Virus record (IMG/VR): IMGVR_UViG_2675903575_000011
Reading direction: 5' to 3' (one strand)
Length of the DNA: 15,248 nt
Source: a virus
Taxonomy: Duplodnaviria; Heunggongvirae; Uroviricota; Caudoviricetes
Shown here: in pieces, positions 1,064 through 10,811 of the stretch
Position numbering within the stretch: position 1 is the first letter of the stretch
How the letters are laid out: every line of letters begins with the position of its first letter
Translations under genes and position numbers: made by a program
The notes under the pieces: model-generated
Database searches by the model: none
What the model was told of the DNA's origin: nothing
Seen by the model: the letters and a program-made list of their open reading frames with translations, nothing else

Positions 1064-2080
1064 TTAAACCAAATTATGTAAAGGATTTTTTGTAACAGCA
1101 TCTTCTAGATGGTCTGGAGAAAAGTGTGCGTAAACCATCGTCATTTTTATATCGGCATGGCCCAATATTTCTTTAAGGACAAGAATATTCCCGCCATTCA
1201 TCATAAAATGACTGGCGAATGTATGACGCAGCACGTGGGTGCATTGGCCCTCTGGTAGCTCGATGCCTGCTCGCTTTACTGCTCGTTCAAAGGCTTTTCT
1301 GCACGGTGTGAATAGTTTCCCTCTGTTCTTGGGGAGTTCATCATACAGATTTTGAGATATCGGCACGGTACGATTTTTCTTACCTTTTGTCTTGGTATAG
1401 GTGATCCGGTATTTTGATAACTGATGGCCCTGCAAGTTTTCTGCTTCACTCCATCGCGCACCAGTAGCCAGGCATATTTTTGCAATCATTAGTAGGCTGG
1501 TGTTTTGAGATTCGGCGCAGGCATTAAGCAGGCGTTTGATTTCGTCCGTGGAAAGAAAAGCCAATTCACCTTCAGCAATTTTGAAGGTTGGAAGCCCTGC
1601 CAGCGGGTTTGGTGCGGACCAGTGCCCTAGTTTTTTCAATGTACCGAACACCGATGACAGGTTACGCTGCTCAAGATTAACTGTGCGAGGTTTAACGGGT
1701 GACATGAACGAGCCGTCTTCATTTTGGACCTCCCCCTTTAATCTGGCTTCCCGATATTTTGTGAAATCACCTGCTGTCAGCTCAGAGGCGATGGGATCGC
1801 CTAGACCATTACAGATAATTCTAAGTTTCGCCATCAGGCGTTTGGGGTCTGCGAGTGTTTGACCATATAGGGAATACCACTGCTCAATCACTTCTGATAA
1901 TCGCCGCCGATCTTCCTTCTCACCAAGCCATGGCTTTTTGTTTACTTCGTCCATGGTGAAGCTTTCAAATGCAATGGCTTCGCCTTTGGTAGCAAATTGC
2001 TTACGCACGCGCTTACCATTGCGTCCATTGGGATAGCACTCACACAACCATTTTCCGTTCGGCTGTTTTCTGATGGTCAT
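1064..2080 (-). CDS. int: Tyrosine-type site-specific integrase (P2/186 Int family)
   Basis: 338-aa ORF with a C-terminal catalytic region typical of tyrosine recombinases (…HVLRHTFASHFMMNGGNILVLKEILGHADIKMTMVYAHF…: the R, H-x-x-R and Y residues). Lies directly downstream of the repressor gene on the same strand, as in 186 (cI-int operon). Confidence 0.9.
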   Translation of the reverse strand: MTIRKQPNGKWLCECYPNGRNGKRVRKQFATKGEAIAFESFTMDEVNKKPWLGEKEDRRRLSEVIEQWYSLYGQTLADPKRLMAKLRIICNGLGDPIASELTAGDFTKYREARLKGEVQNEDGSFMSPVKPRTVNLEQRNLSSVFGTLKKLGHWSAPNPLAGLPTFKIAEGELAFLSTDEIKRLLNACAESQNTSLLMIAKICLATGARWSEAENLQGHQLSKYRITYTKTKGKKNRTVPISQNLYDELPKNRGKLFTPCRKAFERAVKRAGIELPEGQCTHVLRHTFASHFMMNGGNILVLKEILGHADIKMTMVYAHFSPDHLEDAVTKNPLHNLV

Positions 2081-2083
2081 AAG

Positions 2084-2722
2084 TTAGAGGTTCTTGATTA
2101 CTTTGACTGCACGTCCTACGACTTCCACATCATCTACAGAACATTCAAATGAAGTGTCATCTTGGTTAACTACTATTTTGTTTCCGGGTATGCGCGCAAT
2201 TTTGACGATGCTTTTAACTCCGTCCATATCGACTAACCAGAAGCCATTACTGACTTGTTTAACGGACGTATCCACTACAAAGCTATTATTAGCTGTTTTA
2301 ACAAATAAAGCGTTGGATGAGTCACCATCGAGCAGGCTGCTATCAAGAAGAATTTCATCACTTGCCTGCAGTTCGCCGTTCTTCAGTTCAACACGTTTGA
2401 TGCTAGGAGCAACGATCTTAGAAAGTGGTCTTACAGTGACGGGAGGTTCATTTTTGAGATTTGTTTCTTCGTTCTCACACGCATACATATCTCCTTGACC
2501 AGTAGCCAGCCATAGAAGGGAAGCTCCTGTTTCAAGGGCACATTGAATTACCCATTCGGCAGGAAAGCTATCCCTTAAGTATCTGTTAGCCATAGTGCTT
2601 TTGGATACCTCCAGATGTTCGCAGAGCTGCTGTCGTGAGCTGAAGTTGTAAGCCTTAATAAGCCTGTTAATTGCATCGCGCCCACCACTATCATTTCCCG
2701 CCTTGATCAAACTCATAATCAA
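2084..2722 (-). CDS. cI: Phage immunity repressor CI (186-type: N-terminal HTH, C-terminal LexA/S24-like beta-barrel)
   Basis: 212-aa ORF divergent from the apl-cII lytic operon. N-terminal HTH-like segment (SSRQQLCEHLEVSKSTMANRYLRD; CALETGASLLWLATGQG). C-terminal segment NGFWLVDMDGVKSIVKIARIPGNKIVV resembles the LexA C-terminal domain as recalled from memory. Confidence 0.8.
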   Translation of the reverse strand: MIMSLIKAGNDSGGRDAINRLIKAYNFSSRQQLCEHLEVSKSTMANRYLRDSFPAEWVIQCALETGASLLWLATGQGDMYACENEETNLKNEPPVTVRPLSKIVAPSIKRVELKNGELQASDEILLDSSLLDGDSSNALFVKTANNSFVVDTSVKQVSNGFWLVDMDGVKSIVKIARIPGNKIVVNQDDTSFECSVDDVEVVGRAVKVIKNL

Positions 2723-3107: not shown

Positions 3108-3617
3108 ATGTTTGATTATAAGATTTCCAAACACCCGCATTTTGATGAAGCCTGTAGAGCTTTTGCACTTCGTCACAATATGGCGAAGCTGGCAGAACGT
3201 GCAGGAATGAATGTCCAGACTCTGCGAAACAAACTCAACCCAGATCAACCGCATCAGCTCAATGCGCCAGAAATCTGGCTGCTTACCGATCTGACTGAAG
3301 ATTCAACGCTGATAGATGGTTTTCTGGCACAGATTCACTGCCTGCCATGTGTACCGATTAATGAGGTAGCAAAAGAGAAACTGCCGCATTACGTCATGAG
3401 TGCAACCGCAGAGATCGGGCGTGTTGCTGCAGGTGCGGTATCTGGCAATGTAAAAACCAGTGCAGGTCGTCGTGATGCTATCAGCAGCATTAACTCTGTA
3501 ACACGACTGATGGCGCTGGCTGCTGTTTCATTGCAGGCCCGTTTACAGGCTAACCCGGCGATGGCGAGTGCAGTTGATACCATGACTGGCCTTGGTGCTT
3601 CATTCGGTTTGCTGTGA
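3108..3617 (+). CDS. cII: CII-like transcriptional activator of lysogeny establishment (186 CII family)
   Basis: 169-aa ORF, the same length as 186 CII, with an HTH-like N-terminal region (ACRAFALRHNMAKLAERAGMNVQTLRNKL). Strong RBS (aagggggt) before ATG at 3108; position after apl. Confidence 0.75.
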   Translation: MFDYKISKHPHFDEACRAFALRHNMAKLAERAGMNVQTLRNKLNPDQPHQLNAPEIWLLTDLTEDSTLIDGFLAQIHCLPCVPINEVAKEKLPHYVMSATAEIGRVAAGAVSGNVKTSAGRRDAISSINSVTRLMALAAVSLQARLQANPAMASAVDTMTGLGASFGLL

Positions 3618-4658: not shown

Positions 4659-4957
4659 CAAGGGCAGTGCGTATCCATCAATTAAAAATTGCACCTAAGT
4701 ATTTCAACGTTGTGGTTGCAGGTCAAAAGACGGCTGAACTTCGTAAAGACGATCGTGGCTATAAAGTTGGTGATGTTCTTTCTCTTTGCGAATGGAAGCA
4801 TGGCGTATTTACGGGTAGGGAATGGGCCGCTGTTATCTCTCATGTGCTTCCGGTTAATGACGTCATGGCAGTTTCAGAACAATGGGTGATGCTATCAATT
4901 CGCCCATTAACCCCATTAGAAGCTTTAGGATATGTTATTGCAGGAGGTGCTGTATGA
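4655..4957 (+). CDS. DUF3850/ASCH-like small protein
   Basis: 100-aa ORF starting at ATG 4655 (ATGA overlap with the TraR stop). N-terminus [33 protein letters not shown] matches the conserved DUF3850/ASCH signature as recalled. Confidence 0.6.
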
Positions 4958-5811
4958 GCACCATCCTGAAATGGGCGGGTAATAAAACTACCATTATGTC
5001 CGAACTGAAAAAACATCTTCCTGCTGGCCCGCGACTGGTTGAACCTTTCGCGGGTTCCTGTGCTGTGATGATGGAGACGGATTACCCCAGCTATCTTGTT
5101 GCGGATATTAATCCTGATTTAATCAACCTCTATAAAAAGGTTGCTGCTGATTGTGAATCGTTTATATCTCGCGCCAGAGTTTTATTTGAGATCGCAAACA
5201 GGGAGGTGGCTTATTACAACATAAGGCAGGAGTTTAATTACTCAACTGAAATTACTGATTTCATGAAAGCGGTATATTTCCTGTATCTCAATCGTCACGG
5301 TTACCGTGGTTTATGTCGCTATAACAAGAGCGGGCATTTCAACATTCCCTACGGTAATTATAAAAATCCGTATTTCCCTGAAAAAGAAATTCGCGCATTT
5401 GCAGAAAAGGCCCAGCGAGCAACGTTTATCTGCGCCAGCTTTGATGAAACGCTGGCGATGTTGAAGGCGGGGGATGTGGTGTATTGCGATCCGCCGTATG
5501 ACGGTACGTTTTCCGGCTATCACACTGATGGTTTCACTGAAGATGACCAGTATCACCTGGCATCCGTTCTTGAACATCGGTCATCAGAAGGACATCCGGT
5601 CATTGTTTCTAACAGTGACACATCCCTGATCCGTTCGCTGTATCGCAATTTTACTCACCACTACATCAAGGCAAAACGCAGCATCGGCGTAGCAGCTGGT
5701 GAGAGTAAATCTGCAACAGAAATCATCGCTGTTTCTGGGGCACGCTGCTGGGTGGGATTTGATTCTTCGCGTGGCGTGGATAGTTCTGCCGTGTACGGAG
5801 TGCGTGCATGA
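4954..5811 (+). CDS. dam: DNA adenine methyltransferase (Dam-like, D12-class N6-adenine MTase)
   Basis: Motif I region ([11 protein letters not shown]) and catalytic DPPY motif ([11 protein letters not shown]); N-terminus LKWAGNK typical of Dam. Start ATG 4954 overlaps the upstream stop (ATGA). Confidence 0.9.
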
Positions 5812-8228
5812 GCCATGCTGATATGAACAACTGCAGCGGCTTTAACGAGGCCGCCGCAGCATTCTCATGGAACAGCCCGAAAAAGGCTATTAACCCTTAT
5901 CTGGACCCGGCGGAAGTTGCGCCGGTTTCTGCGCTTTCAAACCTGATCACTCTGTACGCTGCCGATAACGAGCAGGAACAACTGCGCCGCGAGGCACTGA
6001 GTGATCAGGTCTGGGAGCGTTATTTCTTTAATGAATCCCGTGATCCTGTCCAGCGCGAAATGGAGCAGGATAAGCTTATTAGCCGGGCAAAGCTGGCGCA
6101 TGAGCAGCAGCGTTTTAATCCGGACATGGTCATACTGGCGGACGTTAACGCCCAGCCTTCCCATATCAGCAAGCCGCTGATGCAACGTATTGAATACTTC
6201 AGCAGCCTGGGCAGGCCAAAGGCTTATTCCCGCTATTTGCGTGAGACGATTAAGCCATGTCTGGAACGACTGGAGCATGTACGCGACAGTCAGCTATCCA
6301 CTTCTTTTCGCTTTATGGCAAGCCATGAAGGGCTGGACGGCCTGCTGATCTTGCCTGAAATGAGTCAGGATCAGGTGAAACGCCTGTCTACTCTTGTCGC
6401 TGCGCATATGAGTATGTGTCTTGATGCCGCTTGTGGTGATTTGTACGCCACCGATGATGTTAAGCCAGAAGAAATCCGCAAGACATGGGAAAAGGTGGCA
6501 GCAGAAACCCTGCGACTGGATGTCATACCGCCTGCGTTTGAGCAACTCCGCCGGAAAAGAAACCGCCGTAAACCCGTGCCCTATGAACTCATTCCGGGTT
6601 CGCTGGCGCGTATGTTGTGCGCCGATTGGTGGTACCGGAAATTATGGAAGATGCGTTGCGAATGGCGGGAAGAGCAGTTGCGTGCTGTTTGCCTGGTCAG
6701 CAAAAAAGCATCTCCCTATGTCAGCTATGAAGCCGTGATGCATAAACGTGAGCAGCGCCGTAAGTCGCTGGAGTTTTTCCGTTCTCATGAACTGGTGAAC
6801 GAAGACGGCGACACGCTGGACATGGAGGATGTGGTAAACGCCAGCAGCAGCAACCCTGCGCATCGCCGCAATGAGATGATGGCCTGTGTTAAAGGTCTGG
6901 AGCTTATCGCGGAAATGCGCGGTGACTGCGCCGTTTTCTACACCATCACCTGTCCGTCACGTTTCCATTCCACGCTAAATAACGGCAGGCCCAACCCGAC
7001 CTGGACAAATGCGACGGTAAGACAAAGCAGTGATTATCTGGTCGGCATGTTTGCTGCATTTCGTAAGGCGATGCACAAAGCCGGGTTGCGCTGGTATGGC
7101 GTGCGGGTGGCTGAGCCGCATCATGACGGCACAGTTCACTGGCACCTGTTGTGTTTCATGCGCAAAAAAGACCGCCGCGCCATTACTGCATTGTTGCGTA
7201 AGTTTGCTATCCGTGAAGACCGCGAGGAGCTGGGTAATAACACGGGGCCACGCTTTAAGTCTGAGCTGATAAACCCGCGCAAAGGAACGCCGACTAGCTA
7301 CATCGCGAAATACATCAGTAAGAACATTGACGGGCGTGGTCTGGCTGGCGAGATCAGCAAGGAAACGGGTAAATCTCTGCGTGATAACGCTGAATACGTT
7401 AATGCCTGGGCGTCTCTGCATCGTGTTCAGCAATTCCGCTTCTTTGGCATTCCGGGGCGTCAGGCTTACCGTGAACTGCGATTGCTGGCTGGTCAGGCGG
7501 CAAGGCAACAGGGTGACAAAAAAGCAGGTGCGCCGGTACTGGATAACCAGCGCCTTGATGCCATTCTGGCTGCAGCTGATGCTGGTTGTTTTGCCACCTA
7601 CATCATGAAGCAGGGCGGCGTACTGGTTCCCCGTAAATATCACCTCATCAGAACCGCTTATGAAATCAACGAAGAGCCGACCGCCTATGGCGATCACGGC
7701 ATTCGTATTTATGGCATCTGGTCACCCATTGCAGAGGGCAAAATCTGCACTCATGCAGTGAAGTGGAAAATGGTTCGTAAGGCCGTTGACGTTCAGGAGG
7801 CGGCAGCCGACCAGGGCGCTTGCGCCCCTTGGACTCGGACTCGTGGCAATAACTGTCCCCTTGCTGAAAATTTGAACCAACAAGGGAAAGACAAATCAGC
7901 TTATGGGGATACCAGAACGGACATTACCCGCATGGATGACAAGGAGTTGCACGATTACCTGCACAGTATGAGCAAAAAAGAGCGCCGGGAACTGGCTGCA
8001 AGGTTACGCCTGGTGAAACCGAAACGGCGTAAAGACTACAAACAGCGAATTACAGACCATCAGCGACAGCAGCTCGTCTATGAGCTGAAGTCCAGAGGAT
8101 TTGATGGCAGCGAGAAAGAGGTCGGTTTACTCCTTCGCGGCGGCAGTATTCCGTCAGGAGCAGGCCTGCGTATCTTCTATCGGAACCAGCGTTTGCAGGA
8201 AGATGATAAGTGGCGGGATCTGTATTAA
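5808..8228 (+). CDS. A: Rolling-circle replication initiation endonuclease (P2/186 gpA family)
   Basis: 806-aa ORF in the gpA position after the early genes. HUH-type motif ([10 protein letters not shown]) with downstream Tyr-containing region (YIAKYISKN). Start ATG 5808 overlaps the dam stop (ATGA). Confidence 0.9.
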
Positions 8229-8320
8229 TTACGCGGGTTAACAATTCGTGCTCTTAATAATACCAGGCATATCAGGCTGATGAACGTAAAAAAACGTTTT
8301 ACATCAGTAAGATTATTATA

Positions 8321-8340
8321 TACTGTAAATATAAACAGTG
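8321..8340. promoter_or_regulatory. LexA operator (SOS box) TACTGTAAATATAAACAGTG
   Basis: Matches CTGT-N8-ACAG with an AT-rich spacer, close to the TACTGTATATATATACAGTA consensus. Overlaps a candidate promoter (TTTACA at 8298..8303; TATACT at 8319..8324) 40 bp upstream of ORF 8381. Confidence 0.7.
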
Positions 8341-8380
8341 GTTATGTATACAGTATTGCTTTGGTGTCATAGGAGGAAAG

Positions 8381-8569
8381 ATGCAGGACTATTTTTTGGA
8401 GTCTTTGAAGCTCCAGCGCATTGATTTTTTTCTTAAGCTTGTAGCGGCTAGTGAGTGTAGTGATGAAGAGAAGGGGCTGGCCCTGCAGTGGGTTTCTGAA
8501 CTAACAGATGAACTCATGGCAAAAATCAGAACCCACGAATACAACCGCTCAATGGATGTCATCAGCTGA
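8381..8569 (+). CDS. Small SOS-controlled protein (62 aa); candidate Tum-like antirepressor
   Basis: RBS aggagga at 8371..8377, ATG at 8381; first gene downstream of the LexA box, in the position of the 186 tum operon. Function is inferred from context only. Confidence 0.4.
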   Translation: MQDYFLESLKLQRIDFFLKLVAASECSDEEKGLALQWVSELTDELMAKIRTHEYNRSMDVIS

Positions 8570-8579
8570 GGTGACTTTT

Positions 8580-8813
8580 ATGCGCATTGAAATAATGATC
8601 GATAAAGAGCAGAAGATTAGCCAGTCTACCCTGGACGCTCTGGAGTCCGAGCTTTACCGCAACCTGCGCCCCCTGTATCCCAAAACGGTAATTCGTATCC
8701 GCAAAGGTAGCTCTAACGGTGTGGAACTTACCGGACTGCAACTGGACGAAGAAAGAAAACAAGTGATGAAAATTATGCAGAAAGTGTGGGAAGACGACAG
8801 CTGGCTGCATTAA
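8580..8813 (+). CDS. dinI: DinI-family protein
   Basis: 77-aa ORF, MRIEIMIDK...LDALESEL...WEDDSWLH, closely parallels E. coli DinI as recalled (MRIEVTIAK...IDALAGEL...WESADDWF). RBS gaggtg at 8567..8572. Confidence 0.8.
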   Translation: MRIEIMIDKEQKISQSTLDALESELYRNLRPLYPKTVIRIRKGSSNGVELTGLQLDEERKQVMKIMQKVWEDDSWLH

Positions 8814-8948
8814 GAAACGTTGCTGGCGTCTGAACTTGCTTCTGGCGTCAGCAAGGTTGAACAACGAGCCCTTGCGAGGCGTTAGCTCTGTAGTGCATGT
8901 CTATGCCGCATGAGATCGCATGATCGTTTGAGGATCGTTTTTGCTAAG

Positions 8949-8972
8949 GCCCGCCAGAACTGGCGGGCTTTT
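8949..8972 (+). terminator. Rho-independent terminator closing the LexA-controlled operon
   Basis: Perfect GC-rich inverted repeat GCCCGCCAG / CTGGCGGGC (8949..8957 and 8960..8968) followed by TTTT (8969..8972). Confidence 0.7.
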
Positions 8973-9017
8973 GCGTAGATCATGCAGGTGCATGAAAACC
9001 ACTGCATAAAGCGGGCA

Positions 9018-9036
9018 GGCGTGGCGGGGATACGAG
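9018..9036. other. Putative cos (cohesive-end) site
   Basis: GGCGTGGCGGGGATACGAG; the first 13 nt match the P2/186 19-nt cohesive-end sequence as I recall it (GGCG[A/T]GGCGGGGAAAGCA[C/T]). Located between the replication/SOS region and the portal gene, as expected. Confidence 0.4.
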
Positions 9037-9137
9037 CGCGCGCAACAGTGTAACAATCTGGATCTAATGTGATATAGTTACTGTAAATATTATTAACTAT
9101 TCTTATATGCATTATTAAATATTTTAATGGAGCGTTT

Positions 9138-10811
9138 ATGGAAAAATATCAAGATGAGGAATATGTAGATGATTTAACTGAGCGTGTTTTTCTCATTAAG
9201 CAACAACTGGAAGCGGGAAAACTAAAAATAGCTCATCATCTTGTAGAAGGTTTTATTGAAAGTTTTAAAAGAATAAGGCTGCGACAGGATGGTAAAGTTG
9301 ACCCTTCTACTGTTGATGGCAGAATAAGGGCTATGGGAGCAGCGGTTAATCACTTTTTAGAAAGAGAAGATATAAAAAACAAATACTCTATTCAGGACTT
9401 GCAAAGTTCTTACTTTAATATTCTTTTTAGTAATTTTGGCGAGTTGTTTTATCTGATGAAAAAAACTAATGCAACGCCACATAAAGCATCAAGTTTTTTT
9501 TCTCAACAAGAAGAATATGTTAAGCAAATAGAAGATATTTTTCCTGAGTTATATAATCAGGTAATAGAGTTTTGGCAGGTAACATCCGATATTGGTGTAA
9601 TACATTTGCAGGATGGTTCTCAGTTTAAAGCTAATTTTTCTGGTGACTTATTTCCTGCATTTGATGAGAATGCTGTCTCTATTGCAGGGTTGTATGTTGA
9701 TACTATTTCACTTCCATGTCCTATATTAAGAGTCGGTCGTCTCTATGAAAAGTCAGATAAGGCTGAGTTTACAAGGATACTTCTGAAGCATGTCCTAACA
9801 TGTATGACATATAAAGAAGTAGCGCTTGAAGATATAGAGCCAGCAATAGTATTAATTTTGCCGGATAGAAGAGATTTTGAAACTGAGAGCAAAAAAAATT
9901 TGATGAGTTTTTGTGAGCCTTATGCTCTGACTCATGCGCAATATCTCTATGATCGACGGTTCGAAAGCTACGATGAATTTCGAGATTTTAGTTATTCGAT
10001 GAATGATATTGATGCTGTTCTTAAAAATATTAAGAGAGCAGATAGACTTATTTTTGATACAGCATGGGGGCTAAATCCAAAAACTCAATTAGAAAAACTA
10101 CTATCTGATAAAAAAAGAATATCACGTAATGTTGTTGGTGATCATGCTGGAATGGAGGTTTTCCTTTCCTGCATTGGAAGAATGCCGCAAGCCTATTCAG
10201 CAAAATGTAATGCACAAGAACTTGGTAGTACTCCATATATAAATGCAGACACATCTTGGCTCTATTATACTTGGCTTATTGAGTACGAATCTCTTAATTT
10301 TGATGTCAATGATATTGAACTAAAAAATTTGCATATGGTTCATGCGTTATCTGCTGGTATGCAAGATGGTTTTTCATGGTTAGGAAATGTACCGGTCAAT
10401 AAAATAATTGAGTTGAGACGTAACAAATTGATGGAGGATGTAAGATCCATCTTATCAAATGGTGTTGACTCTTTAATCAATTCTTCGGCAGAGAGCTTTT
10501 CGAGGACAACGCAAAAAGTAATTGATAATGTAGACCGGGCTTTTATTGAACATCAAAGGATTCTTGCAAAAGCCCAAAAAGAGAAATTGAGAATTTACGG
10601 ACTAGATGTCCTACCATGTATCGCAAATGGTGCTATAGCAATTGCTGGAGCGCTGACTGGCAATACTACTTTAACGGCGTTAAGTGCAGGCCTTGGAGTA
10701 ATAGGTATTCCGAGTATTAGTGATATCAAATCTAAATTTAAGCAGAGGCAAGAGAAGCTTGATGCCTATCAACGTTCTGTTACAGGTATACTCTTTAGCC
10801 ATAAATCTTAA
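9138..10811 (+). CDS. Orphan AT-rich 557-aa protein, unknown function; candidate phage-borne defence/exclusion protein (soluble N-terminal region plus C-terminal glycine-rich hydrophobic hairpin)
   Basis: Long uninterrupted ORF with RBS (ggag at 9129..9132) 5 nt before ATG 9138. Composition visibly AT-rich versus flanking phage genes. No Walker A or other motif I can recognise. C-terminal ANGAIAIAGALTG...LSAGLGVIGIPSI is hydrophobic and glycine-zipper-like. Convergent with the portal gene and ended by a hairpin. Confidence 0.7.
   Translation: MEKYQDEEYVDDLTERVFLIKQQLEAGKLKIAHHLVEGFIESFKRIRLRQDGKVDPSTVDGRIRAMGAAVNHFLEREDIKNKYSIQDLQSSYFNILFSNFGELFYLMKKTNATPHKASSFFSQQEEYVKQIEDIFPELYNQVIEFWQVTSDIGVIHLQDGSQFKANFSGDLFPAFDENAVSIAGLYVDTISLPCPILRVGRLYEKSDKAEFTRILLKHVLTCMTYKEVALEDIEPAIVLILPDRRDFETESKKNLMSFCEPYALTHAQYLYDRRFESYDEFRDFSYSMNDIDAVLKNIKRADRLIFDTAWGLNPKTQLEKLLSDKKRISRNVVGDHAGMEVFLSCIGRMPQAYSAKCNAQELGSTPYINADTSWLYYTWLIEYESLNFDVNDIELKNLHMVHALSAGMQDGFSWLGNVPVNKIIELRRNKLMEDVRSILSNGVDSLINSSAESFSRTTQKVIDNVDRAFIEHQRILAKAQKEKLRIYGLDVLPCIANGAIAIAGALTGNTTLTALSAGLGVIGIPSISDIKSKFKQRQEKLDAYQRSVTGILFSHKS

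Follow-up and report, generated by a model that had tools for sequence, protein, structure and literature searches.

A split tumA–tumB operon behind a predicted double LexA operator in a Fels-2/186-like prophage

The 15,248-nt stretch of tailed-phage (Caudoviricetes) DNA considered here (IMG/VR record IMGVR_UViG_2675903575_000011, in its entirety "the window") is from a Fels-2-like prophage with a 186-type CI repressor. Directly 3' of its replication gene A (5808-8228, Pfam Phage_GPA) and before cos lies an operon of two small genes, tumA and tumB, with predicted LexA boxes ahead of it and a conserved 3' element and a terminator-like hairpin behind it (Table 1). A cos-like sequence, GGCGTGGCGGGG, runs from 9018, and the right end of 186 aligns to 8952-9017. 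The order A–tum–cos is equal in 186, PSP3, Fels-2 and the window; an earlier interpretation of this DNA, made from its letters without database searches (the sequence-only reading), had placed the operon at the position of the 186 tum locus, and the presence of gene A directly upstream, as for tum in 186, bears this out.

Table 1. Features of the operon and the repressor gene discussed in the text (nucleotide positions in the window).
Feature	Position	Strand	Details
Putative -35 of the tumAB (p95-equivalent) promoter	8298..8303	+	TTTACA; by analogy with 186 p95
LexA box 1 (distal), predicted	8321..8340	+	TACTGTAAATATAAACAGTG; contains putative -10 TACTGT (8321-8326)
LexA box 2 (proximal), predicted	8336..8355	+	CAGTGGTTATGTATACAGTA; 5 mismatches to the consensus
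tumA, antirepressor candidate	8381..8569	+	62 aa; ATG start; SD AGGAGG (8371-8376)
tumB, DinI-family gene	8580..8813	+	77 aa; own SD GAGGTG (8568-8573) overlapping the tumA stop codon
Conserved 3' element	8816..8885	+	17-bp hairpin (8816-8858), invariant GGTTGAACAACGAG (8855-8868) ... GCGAGGCGTTAG (8874-8885)
Intrinsic terminator-like GC-rich hairpin and T run	8946..8972	+	probable transcript end
cI, 186-type immunity repressor, presumed TumA target	2084..2722	-	assigned by Pfam

The distal LexA box departs from the palindromic consensus TACTGTATATATATACAGTA at 3 positions and is the only match of its quality in the window; none of 200 shuffles gave one, and the pattern CTGT-N8-ACAG occurs in the window a single time, at this box. 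Since the hexamer TACTGT forms its first six nucleotides, the -10 element would lie inside the LexA box, and the near-consensus operator over the operon promoter that had been claimed from the letters is indeed present and unique in the window. The promoter itself is a putative assignment drawn from the parallel with p95 of 186, which is annotated as TTCACA-18-TACTGT, whereas the window has TTTACA, a 17-nt spacer and TACTGT; the sequence TTTTACA is kept in Fels-2, SopEPhi and a Klebsiella phage. A simple sigma-70 consensus scan did not call the tumAB promoter, the hexamers of which are weak by consensus. Among relatives, 16 of 20 other bacterial genomes have a LexA box of the strict pattern CTG-N10-CAG 32-66 nt 5' of their tumA homologues, and a box was found upstream of tumA in every phage locus examined, i.e., the box is conserved across Enterobacterales and phages.

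The second, proximal LexA box, which overlaps the first by 5 nt, had been missed by the sequence-only reading. At the level of sequence, the arrangement is that of a colicin-type double SOS operator, i.e., two 20-nt boxes that share approximately 5 nt and contain ...ACAGTGGTTAT...TACAGTA. The combined 35-nt operator follows the pattern ACTGT-N-CAGTGGTTATGT(A/G)TACAGTA and aligns column for column with the colicin N, pesticin and cloacin promoters; it is 86-90% identical, in register, to the operator regions of those plasmids, and a single nucleotide distinguishes the proximal box from its colicin N counterpart. Colicin operators are bound by two LexA dimers and very tightly repressed (PMC2994835). 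The likeness has its limits, however, as the -35 region upstream and the leader downstream of the operator are unrelated to their colicin, pesticin and cloacin counterparts, and the operator drives a bacteriocin in those systems, but a candidate prophage antirepressor in the window. The predicted double site would lead one to expect tighter and later induction than with the single box of 186 and, if it is a true one, a colicin-type LexA operator would give the tight, late-firing control needed by a lethal switch.

The first gene of the operon had been put forward from the letters as the candidate antirepressor, with no family that could be named. Searches of Pfam, NCBIfam and PADLOC indeed gave no family for the 62-aa protein, but it matches PHROG 698 (E 3.6e-38), a family labeled "unknown function", and it is 98% identical to STM2728 of Fels-2. 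Its homology to Tum of 186 depends on a family profile and one bridging sequence: direct BLASTP of the window protein against 186 Tum gave no alignment, whereas a profile of 27 TumA-family sequences matched Tum residues 5-45 (hhalign probability 94.5%, E 7.6e-8), and the bridging family member, P0147, is 41% identical to Tum (BLASTP, E 7e-11). The alignment to 186 Tum that the sequence-only reading had proposed as a check is thereby provided by the family profile, and the protein can be assigned to TumA, which is the N-terminal domain of Tum (PHROG 698). Homology to the N-terminal, non-DinI half of Tum also strengthens its standing as a candidate antirepressor. The PSP3 TumA is weakly linked to the family (hhalign E 0.005, probability 7%). 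The gene is under purifying selection (dN/dS 0.04-0.09), and an AlphaFold2 model of its product is a two-helix hairpin (pLDDT 86), for which a Foldseek search of the PDB returned generic helical hairpins only, all with E > 0.7.

The records and literature on the relatives of tumA are in keeping with this assignment. The tum gene of 186 is annotated "expression repressed by LexA; inhibits CI DNA binding", and tumA of PSP3 is annotated "similar to 5' end 186 tum; UV induction of prophage". In both Fels-2 and PSP3, tum is split by a stop codon (Lemire et al. 2011, PMC3121763), and the same authors cite a personal communication that the upstream gene of PSP3 provides antirepressor activity. A literature search with the names tumA and tumB returned nothing relevant. 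In the RefSeq and phage records examined, the 62-aa gene is a "hypothetical protein", and the value of the assignment for annotation is that it can now be named TumA.

The DinI-like nature of the second gene, recognized at the outset, was confirmed: tumB matches Pfam DinI (PF06183) with E 6.6e-23 and 81.3 bits (cut-off 24.2), across profile positions 1-63 of 63. Its product is 41% identical to residues 71-145 of 186 Tum, the DinI-like C-terminal half, and 100% identical to a DinI-family protein of Fels-2, the record of which cites PSP3 TumB; the latter is annotated "similar to dinI and 3' end of 186 tum". Against the NCBIfam DinI equivalog, TumB scored 42.7 bits, below the cut-off of 111, which marks it as a DinI-like paralogue rather than the host's own DinI. 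As with tumA, it is under purifying selection (dN/dS approximately 0.05).

A frameshifted fusion of the two products had also been suggested; a +1 shift within 8508-8569 would join TumA and the DinI-like frame into one 186-Tum-like polypeptide, and in 186 the two halves do form a single 146-aa protein. The observation behind the idea was confirmed, in that no stop interrupts the DinI frame for 25 codons 5' of the tumB ATG, as far as another ATG at 8508, so that this frame, +1 relative to tumA, overlaps its 3' end. The junction, however, varies even among close relatives: the gap and relative frame are 10 nt and +1 in the window and Fels-2, but 11 nt and +2, with an extension of only 14 codons, in SopEPhi and in Klebsiella ST512-KPC3phi13.6, whose TumA proteins are 84-89% identical; 3 nt and frame 0, with a stop between tumA and tumB, in PSP3; and 15 nt and frame 0, again with an intervening stop, in Mixta and Pantoea prophages. 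Every tumB is provided with an SD of its own, and its ATG is where DinI proteins begin (MRIE...); many tumA genes are without any downstream DinI gene, and of 66 representatives of the TumA family (50% clusters), none matches at its N-terminus with room left for a C-terminal DinI domain. Reading the overlap by eye also revealed no prfB-type +1 slippery site. Because the gap and frame are unconserved, the tumB genes have their own SDs, no representative matches at its N-terminus with space for a DinI domain and stand-alone tumA genes are common, the fusion was rejected, and we accord it next to no probability. A hairpin at 8558-8575, over the tumB RBS, was also considered as a means of translational coupling and set aside, its z-score of -1.0 not being significant and the structure not being conserved at junctions of the SopEPhi type.

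Of the strong terminator said to end the operon, the hairpin proved real (dG -23.4 kcal/mol, z -4.9; none of 200 shuffles folded as well), and it is kept in Fels-2 and 813R9. Its adjacency to the operon did not stand, since it lies 133 nt past the tumB stop codon and 46 nt before cos.

The repressor on which TumA would act is encoded on the opposite strand. The cI product matches both Phage_CI_repr (E 8e-33) and Phage_CI_C (E 5e-40) of Pfam, shares 30% identity with 186 CI along the full length (E 3e-37), and has no S24 peptidase (autocleavage) domain by Pfam. Taken together, the homologies to the N-terminal half and the DinI half of Tum, the 186-type CI lacking an S24 domain, and the literature support the central proposal of the sequence-only reading, i.e., that this prophage, whose repressor cannot be cleaved via RecA, carries a 186 tum-type antirepressor module under SOS/LexA control. 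Very probably, the locus is the operon, in split tumA–tumB form, through which a Fels-2/186-like prophage (Peduoviridae) is induced by the SOS response. What the analysis shows directly is the sequence anatomy, the homologies, the conservation of the LexA box among relatives, the purifying selection and the independence of the two cistrons; LexA binding, the TumA–CI interaction and the role of TumB we infer from the work on 186, PSP3 and Fels-2.

A mechanism can be proposed on that basis. In an undamaged lysogen, host LexA would occupy the double overlapping operator (8321-8355), which would cover the -10 region of the promoter and the transcription start and keep the operon silent. Upon DNA damage, RecA would be activated, LexA would cleave itself and the operon would be transcribed. 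TumA, as a small helical hairpin, would then bind the 186-type CI non-covalently and stop it from binding its operators, with the result that the lytic promoter would be derepressed and the prophage induced without cleavage of its repressor. TumB, translated from its own RBS, would be expected from its family membership to modulate the activity of RecA filaments and thus potentially the strength or duration of the SOS signal. As summarized in PMC12626290, Bunny et al. (2002) found that all surviving lexA-null isolates of LT2 had lost Fels-2.

One identical TumA allele, overlooked by the sequence-only reading, occurs beside CI repressors that are 35-98% identical, among them the CI proteins of Kp4860-7 and Kp4845-2, 35-57% identical to that of the window. 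This would be unexpected for a specific binder, unless it is the conserved N-terminal domain of CI (approximately residues 1-80) that is recognized, and a single allele serving divergent CIs therefore points to that domain as the target.

The pairing of an identical TumA with very different CI proteins could also be read as a sign that the operon is solely an accessory that modulates SOS through the action of its DinI-like protein on RecA, with the 62-aa protein not an antirepressor and some other factor responsible for induction; further in line with this, it is only the DinI part that has a curated family, PHROG 698 being of "unknown function". Against such a reading, it is the non-DinI part of 186 Tum to which TumA is homologous, and in many genomes a LexA-boxed tumA stands without DinI at the same position after gene A. 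As tumA is often alone at the locus, TumA is the constant part and DinI the optional one. Moreover, with no LexA box elsewhere in the window and no autocleavage domain in CI, an alternative route for SOS induction is not visible, and we consider a purely accessory role quite unlikely.

Equally to be weighed was whether the module is a decayed remnant, its LexA box and ORFs persisting in a defective prophage without function. A 100% identical 911-bp locus does occur in one E. coli genome whose prophage is clearly degraded, with truncated terminase and tail genes, and the orf97 of 186 and Fels-2 is absent from the window. However, neither gene is disrupted and purifying selection on both is strong; the operator, both SDs and the terminator are likewise intact; int, cI, cII and A of the window have family matches, and ORFs of portal and terminase size, as judged by their length, follow downstream. 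In addition, the exact TumA sequence is present in at least 80 viral contigs, and relatives of it are encoded by 593 stretches of the same collection. Decay is, on this evidence, hardly credible.

Tum-type modules have precedents. The p95-tum-orf97 region of 186 has the same position, after gene A and before cos, and its LexA box lies over a TACTGT -10 element, as in the window. The differences are that 186 Tum is one 146-aa polypeptide with internal starts, whereas the window has two cistrons, 10 nt apart and in different frames; that 186 has a single LexA box, whereas the window has two that overlap; and that orf97 and the t95a terminator of 186 are missing from the window. The two-gene architecture is shared with Fels-2 (STM2728 and STM2726.1) and PSP3 (tumA and tumB). 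Fels-2 has the same promoter and double operator as the window, but after its tumB comes an orf97-like gene, without the 3' hairpin-motif element, whereas the window has the element and no orf97. In PSP3, TumA is very divergent and in the same frame as tumB, with TAG and 3 nt between them, and there is a single LexA box. A more distant parallel is provided by Gifsy-1/2/3 of Salmonella, in which LexA-repressed dinI-antirepressor operons (GfoA, GftA) act on a non-cleavable repressor that is inactivated by binding (PMC3121763). Like the window operon, these place a DinI homologue and a small antirepressor under LexA, but with dinI first, in lambdoid phages, and with repressors of a different family. 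A LexA-repressed antirepressor paired with a DinI-like protein is, therefore, already known from 186, PSP3 and Fels-2, and the window operon is a real but ordinary instance of it.

The locus has matches in 1280 of 5426 complete E. coli genomes. The single-protein scan of viral sequences returned only 100% identical copies, and the sequence diversity considered here was obtained through a sub-alignment search of bacterial genomes. The significance of the module is that it accounts for the response to DNA damage of a common prophage family whose repressor is not cleavable, which is of relevance to the induction of prophages by antibiotics, e.g., fluoroquinolones.

Downstream of tumB, and also missed by the sequence-only reading, is the 3' element, a conserved, covarying hairpin together with an invariant motif. 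In an alignment of 44 sequences, 93.8% of cells were paired and compensatory changes were found in 12 of the 17 pairs, for a covariation score of 0.48 vs. at most 0.17 in slid controls, and a covariance model of the element scored 84 bits on the + strand, as against 20 bits on the opposite one. No Rfam family matched within 8150-9200 (E up to 1), and a literature search with the motif strings led to unrelated PCR primers only. The 24 in-frame codons after the tumB stop were considered as read-through coding, which was rejected because PSP3 has the motif in another frame and the stem shows the covariation of a structure. Neither is the element a canonical intrinsic terminator, as a U tract is missing and the 186 copy precedes the annotated t95b. 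It follows tumA and/or tumB in 53 of 58 distinct loci, and in many phages it supplies the RBS of the next gene. A tentative and rather doubtful suggestion is that tum-bearing P2-like phages have in it a cis-acting RNA or DNA module not described before, by which exchangeable accessory genes are brought under SOS control or have their mRNA processed. It may mark the 3' junction of the genes of the SOS operon and, in PSP3, the element is duplicated and flanks one gene on both sides, like the boundary of a cassette.

The window covers the early/immunity half of a P2/186-like prophage (Peduoviridae) that resembles Fels-2, and the stretch 8230-8990, which holds the two genes at issue, is 94-98% identical to many P2-like phages of Klebsiella, Escherichia and Salmonella, Fels-2 among them, and was matched in 1280 of 5426 complete E. 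coli genomes. Comparison with these relatives identifies the module as the split Tum (TumA/TumB) SOS operon already known from prophages of the Fels-2/PSP3 type, of which it is a near-identical copy. In the 186 record, tum is annotated as LexA-repressed and as inhibiting CI DNA binding, with shorter internal products annotated as modulators of SOS induction, and the PSP3 record describes tumA as "similar to 5' end 186 tum; UV induction of prophage" and tumB as "similar to dinI and 3' end of 186 tum". Lemire et al. 2011 describe tum as split by a stop codon in Fels-2 and PSP3 and, citing a personal communication, place the antirepressor activity of PSP3 in the upstream gene (PMC3121763). The observation of the sequence-only reading is confirmed, and its main proposal, an SOS/LexA-controlled antirepressor module of the 186 tum type, is supported by TumA-Tum homology, the LexA box and a 186-type CI, in which no S24 peptidase domain was found by Pfam. 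The operon itself is known, and the side observations are a double colicin-type operator, one TumA allele that occurs with many CI types, and a structured 3' element, the last being the most worth following up.

Features of the window and copies of the 3' element in relatives
Feature	Coordinates	Strand	Remarks
Integrase	1064-2080	-	Pfam
186-type CI repressor	2084-2722	-	Pfam Phage_CI_repr + Phage_CI_C
186-type CII	3108-3617		Pfam
Dam methylase	4882-5811		Pfam
Rolling-circle replication protein A	5808-8228		Pfam
tumA	8381-8569	+	62-aa ORF after AGGAGG 8371-8376
tumB	8580-8813	+	77-aa DinI-family product, Pfam E 6.6e-23
3' element	8816-8885	+	17-bp hairpin 8816-8858, then GGTTGAACAACGAG 8855-8868 and GCGAGGCGTTAG 8874-8885
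Terminator-like hairpin	8946-8972		dG -23.4 kcal/mol, z -4.9
3' element, 186	L003 8336-8421		
3' element, PSP3	L004 7548-7632 and 7952-8037		two copies

The 62-aa ORF, for which the sequence-only reading could name no family, matched no family in Pfam, NCBIfam or PADLOC and falls in PHROG 698 ('unknown function'), but its product is 98% identical to Fels-2 STM2728 and can be linked to the N-terminal part of 186 Tum. Pairwise BLASTP gave no alignment between window TumA and 186 Tum; the link came through a family member, P0147, which is 54% identical to window TumA and 41% identical to Tum residues 5-43 (E 7e-11), and through a 27-sequence family profile that aligned to Tum residues 5-45 (hhalign probability 94.5%, E 7.6e-8). 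The family consensus is ESLALQRIELVARLVAxSxCSxxDKELALxWIAELT and its 186 counterpart EHVMIERVEMIARLTAEGTCQERDREIALNLIAEIA, with PSP3 TumA aligning weakly in the same register (E 0.005). The AlphaFold2 model of TumA (pLDDT 86) is a two-helix hairpin (helices 2-22 and 28-61) whose turn contains the conserved Cys26, and a structure search with it was uninformative. tumA is under strong purifying selection: all differences between alleles at most 7 nucleotides apart are synonymous, and more distant alleles give dN/dS values of 0.04-0.09.

The LexA operator proposed to overlie the operon promoter is present as box 1 (TACTGTAAATATAAACAGTG, 8321-8340), the sole match in the window at three or fewer mismatches to the palindromic consensus, a level reached in 0/200 shuffles, and the single occurrence of CTGT-N8-ACAG. 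A plain consensus promoter scan did not call the tumA promoter; the assignment is by analogy with 186 p95, annotated in the 186 record as TTCACA-18-TACTGT with a LexA box over the -10 element, a layout shared by the putative window promoter TTTACA-17-TACTGT. In addition, a second LexA-like 20-mer, found in the Fels-2 clade, shares 5 nt with box 1 (box 2, CAGTGGTTATGTATACAGTA, 8336-8355; 5 mismatches, left half-site GTG, not CTG), whereas only one box is present in 186, PSP3 and the loci with stand-alone tumA. A 51-nt query spanning the operator matched 214 plasmid records, and in the three small plasmids inspected the genes directly 3' of the match were those for colicin N, pesticin and cloacin. 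Their operators align in register with the window operator over both boxes, the colicin N proximal box being 1 base apart from box 2. Colicin operators bind two LexA dimers and are repressed very tightly, and the colicin N boxes have heterology indices of 7.55 (distal) and 11.61 (proximal) (PMC2994835). By this likeness the induction trigger in the Fels-2 clade may be held tighter, and fired later, than in 186, although no paper in the literature consulted, which excluded Bunny et al. 2002, was found to say so. As summarised in a 2025 paper (PMC12626290), Bunny et al. found that all lexA-null survivors of Salmonella LT2 had lost Fels-2.

The second gene is, as had been claimed, clearly DinI-like, its product also being 41% identical to 186 Tum residues 71-145. 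Its frame does stay open upstream to 8508, which had made a frameshifted Tum-DinI fusion of tumA and tumB seem possible; 25 open codons before the tumB ATG are shared by the window, Fels-2 and 813R9. The junction is not kept among relatives, however: in those three the gap is 10 nt with tumB in frame +1, in SopEPhi and Klebsiella ST512-KPC3phi13.6 (TumA 84-89% identical) it is 11 nt in frame +2 with just 14 open codons, and in PSP3 (3 nt, TAG) and Mixta and Pantoea prophages (15 nt, TAA) the genes are in frame 0 with a stop codon in between. In all cases compared, tumB is preceded by a Shine-Dalgarno sequence of its own and its ATG coincides with the DinI start (MRIE/MRVE/MQVE), and in most other genomes found a LexA-boxed tumA stands alone. 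Together, these variable junctions, independent tumB starts and stand-alone tumA genes rule out a conserved programmed frameshift, and the fusion is rejected in favour of two separately started genes.

HMMER, run exhaustively over 1.84 billion cluster representatives, gave a TumA family of 66, mostly 52-77 aa, none of which matched at its N-terminus with space for a C-terminal DinI domain. tumA stands alone in 18 of 20 bacterial loci, in ESSI-2-like phages, and as a Yersinia phage gene annotated 'tum protein'. Given the many LexA-boxed tumA genes without a DinI-like neighbour, the DinI half of the module is optional and TumA is its fixed component. LexA-boxed stand-alone tumA was seen in many Enterobacterales genomes and phages (loci L085-L100, L103-L104 and L107-L109), e.g., Yersinia vB_YenM_06.16-2.

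Window CI and 186 CI share 30% identity along the full length of the protein. Among phage records, an identical or 98% identical TumA allele adjoins CIs that are 97.6, 62, 57, 44, 42 and 35% identical to window CI, and since the identical allele sits beside CIs of 35-62% identity, the antirepressor is not paired one-to-one with immunity type. When these CIs are aligned, the N-terminal helix-turn-helix domain is best conserved, and divergence is seen in the linker and in the greater part of the C-terminal domain. We infer that TumA may recognise a conserved CI feature, most simply the DNA-binding domain, a target that would suit an antirepressor blocking operator binding.

The operon had been said to end in a strong terminator; the hairpin is indeed strong, but it lies 133 nt beyond the tumB stop codon. 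orf97, which in 186 prevents infection by that phage when expressed from a plasmid, follows tum in 186 and Fels-2 and is absent from the window (8814-8945 vs 2085-2925 of relative's locus L001), where tumB is followed by the 3' element and then directly by the terminator. The 186 right end aligns to window 8952-9017, placing the operon terminator 46 nt ahead of cos; a cos-like cohesive-end sequence, GGCGTGGCGGGGATACGAG, occurs at 9018-9036, its first 13 nt being the 186 left end. Between cos and a portal-sized ORF is a 557-aa ORF (9138-10811, + strand) with no family in Pfam, PHROG or NCBIfam and a weak PADLOC match to DitB, a candidate defence protein (E 7e-10); it probably represents accessory cargo, in the variable region that holds old and tin in P2. 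A 366-aa ORF (1-1101, - strand), 3' of the integrase gene and overlapping its 3' end by 38 nt, is without a Pfam or PADLOC family and has a sub-threshold NCBIfam match only.

Many P2-like phages carry the 3' element at the 3' end of their tum operon. No Rfam family matched it, no mention of it was found in searchable papers, and it was not found in the A-to-cos region of P2, in Fels-2 or in stand-alone tumA genomes; it is not a canonical terminator, as it lacks a U tract and in 186 precedes the annotated t95b. Scanning viral contigs with a 14-mer gave 120 matches, 72 of which had the extended element, in 58 distinct contexts. Across 44 sequences, 93.8% of hairpin cells are paired, 12 of the 17 pairs show compensatory changes, and the covariation score is 0.48 (at most 0.17 with partners slid; 0/500 shuffles as high); the invariance of the two motifs is partly imposed by the sequence collection, but the hairpin covariation is not. 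The structure is on the sense strand, as indicated by frequent G-U pairs and a covariance model scoring 84 bits on the plus strand vs 20 bits on the minus.

In 53 of the 58 loci the element is preceded by tumA and/or tumB, where tumA can be of any of three highly divergent types, and the motif starts 43-55 nt past tumB, 48-76 nt past stand-alone tumA, or beyond orf97/orf37-like genes; in PSP3 and one other contig, two copies lie one on either side of orf37. At about a quarter of loci (including L117, L128, L136, L137, L147, L164, L170 and L171) an 85-107-aa ORF begins 2-3 nt past the GTTAG of the element, which makes the GAGG of the motif the ribosome-binding site of that ORF. The recurrent ORFs are of 85-93 aa starting MGSKDSNYQVVYRGE, or of 107 aa starting MGFPSPAQDYVE, and would share the transcript of the SOS operon.
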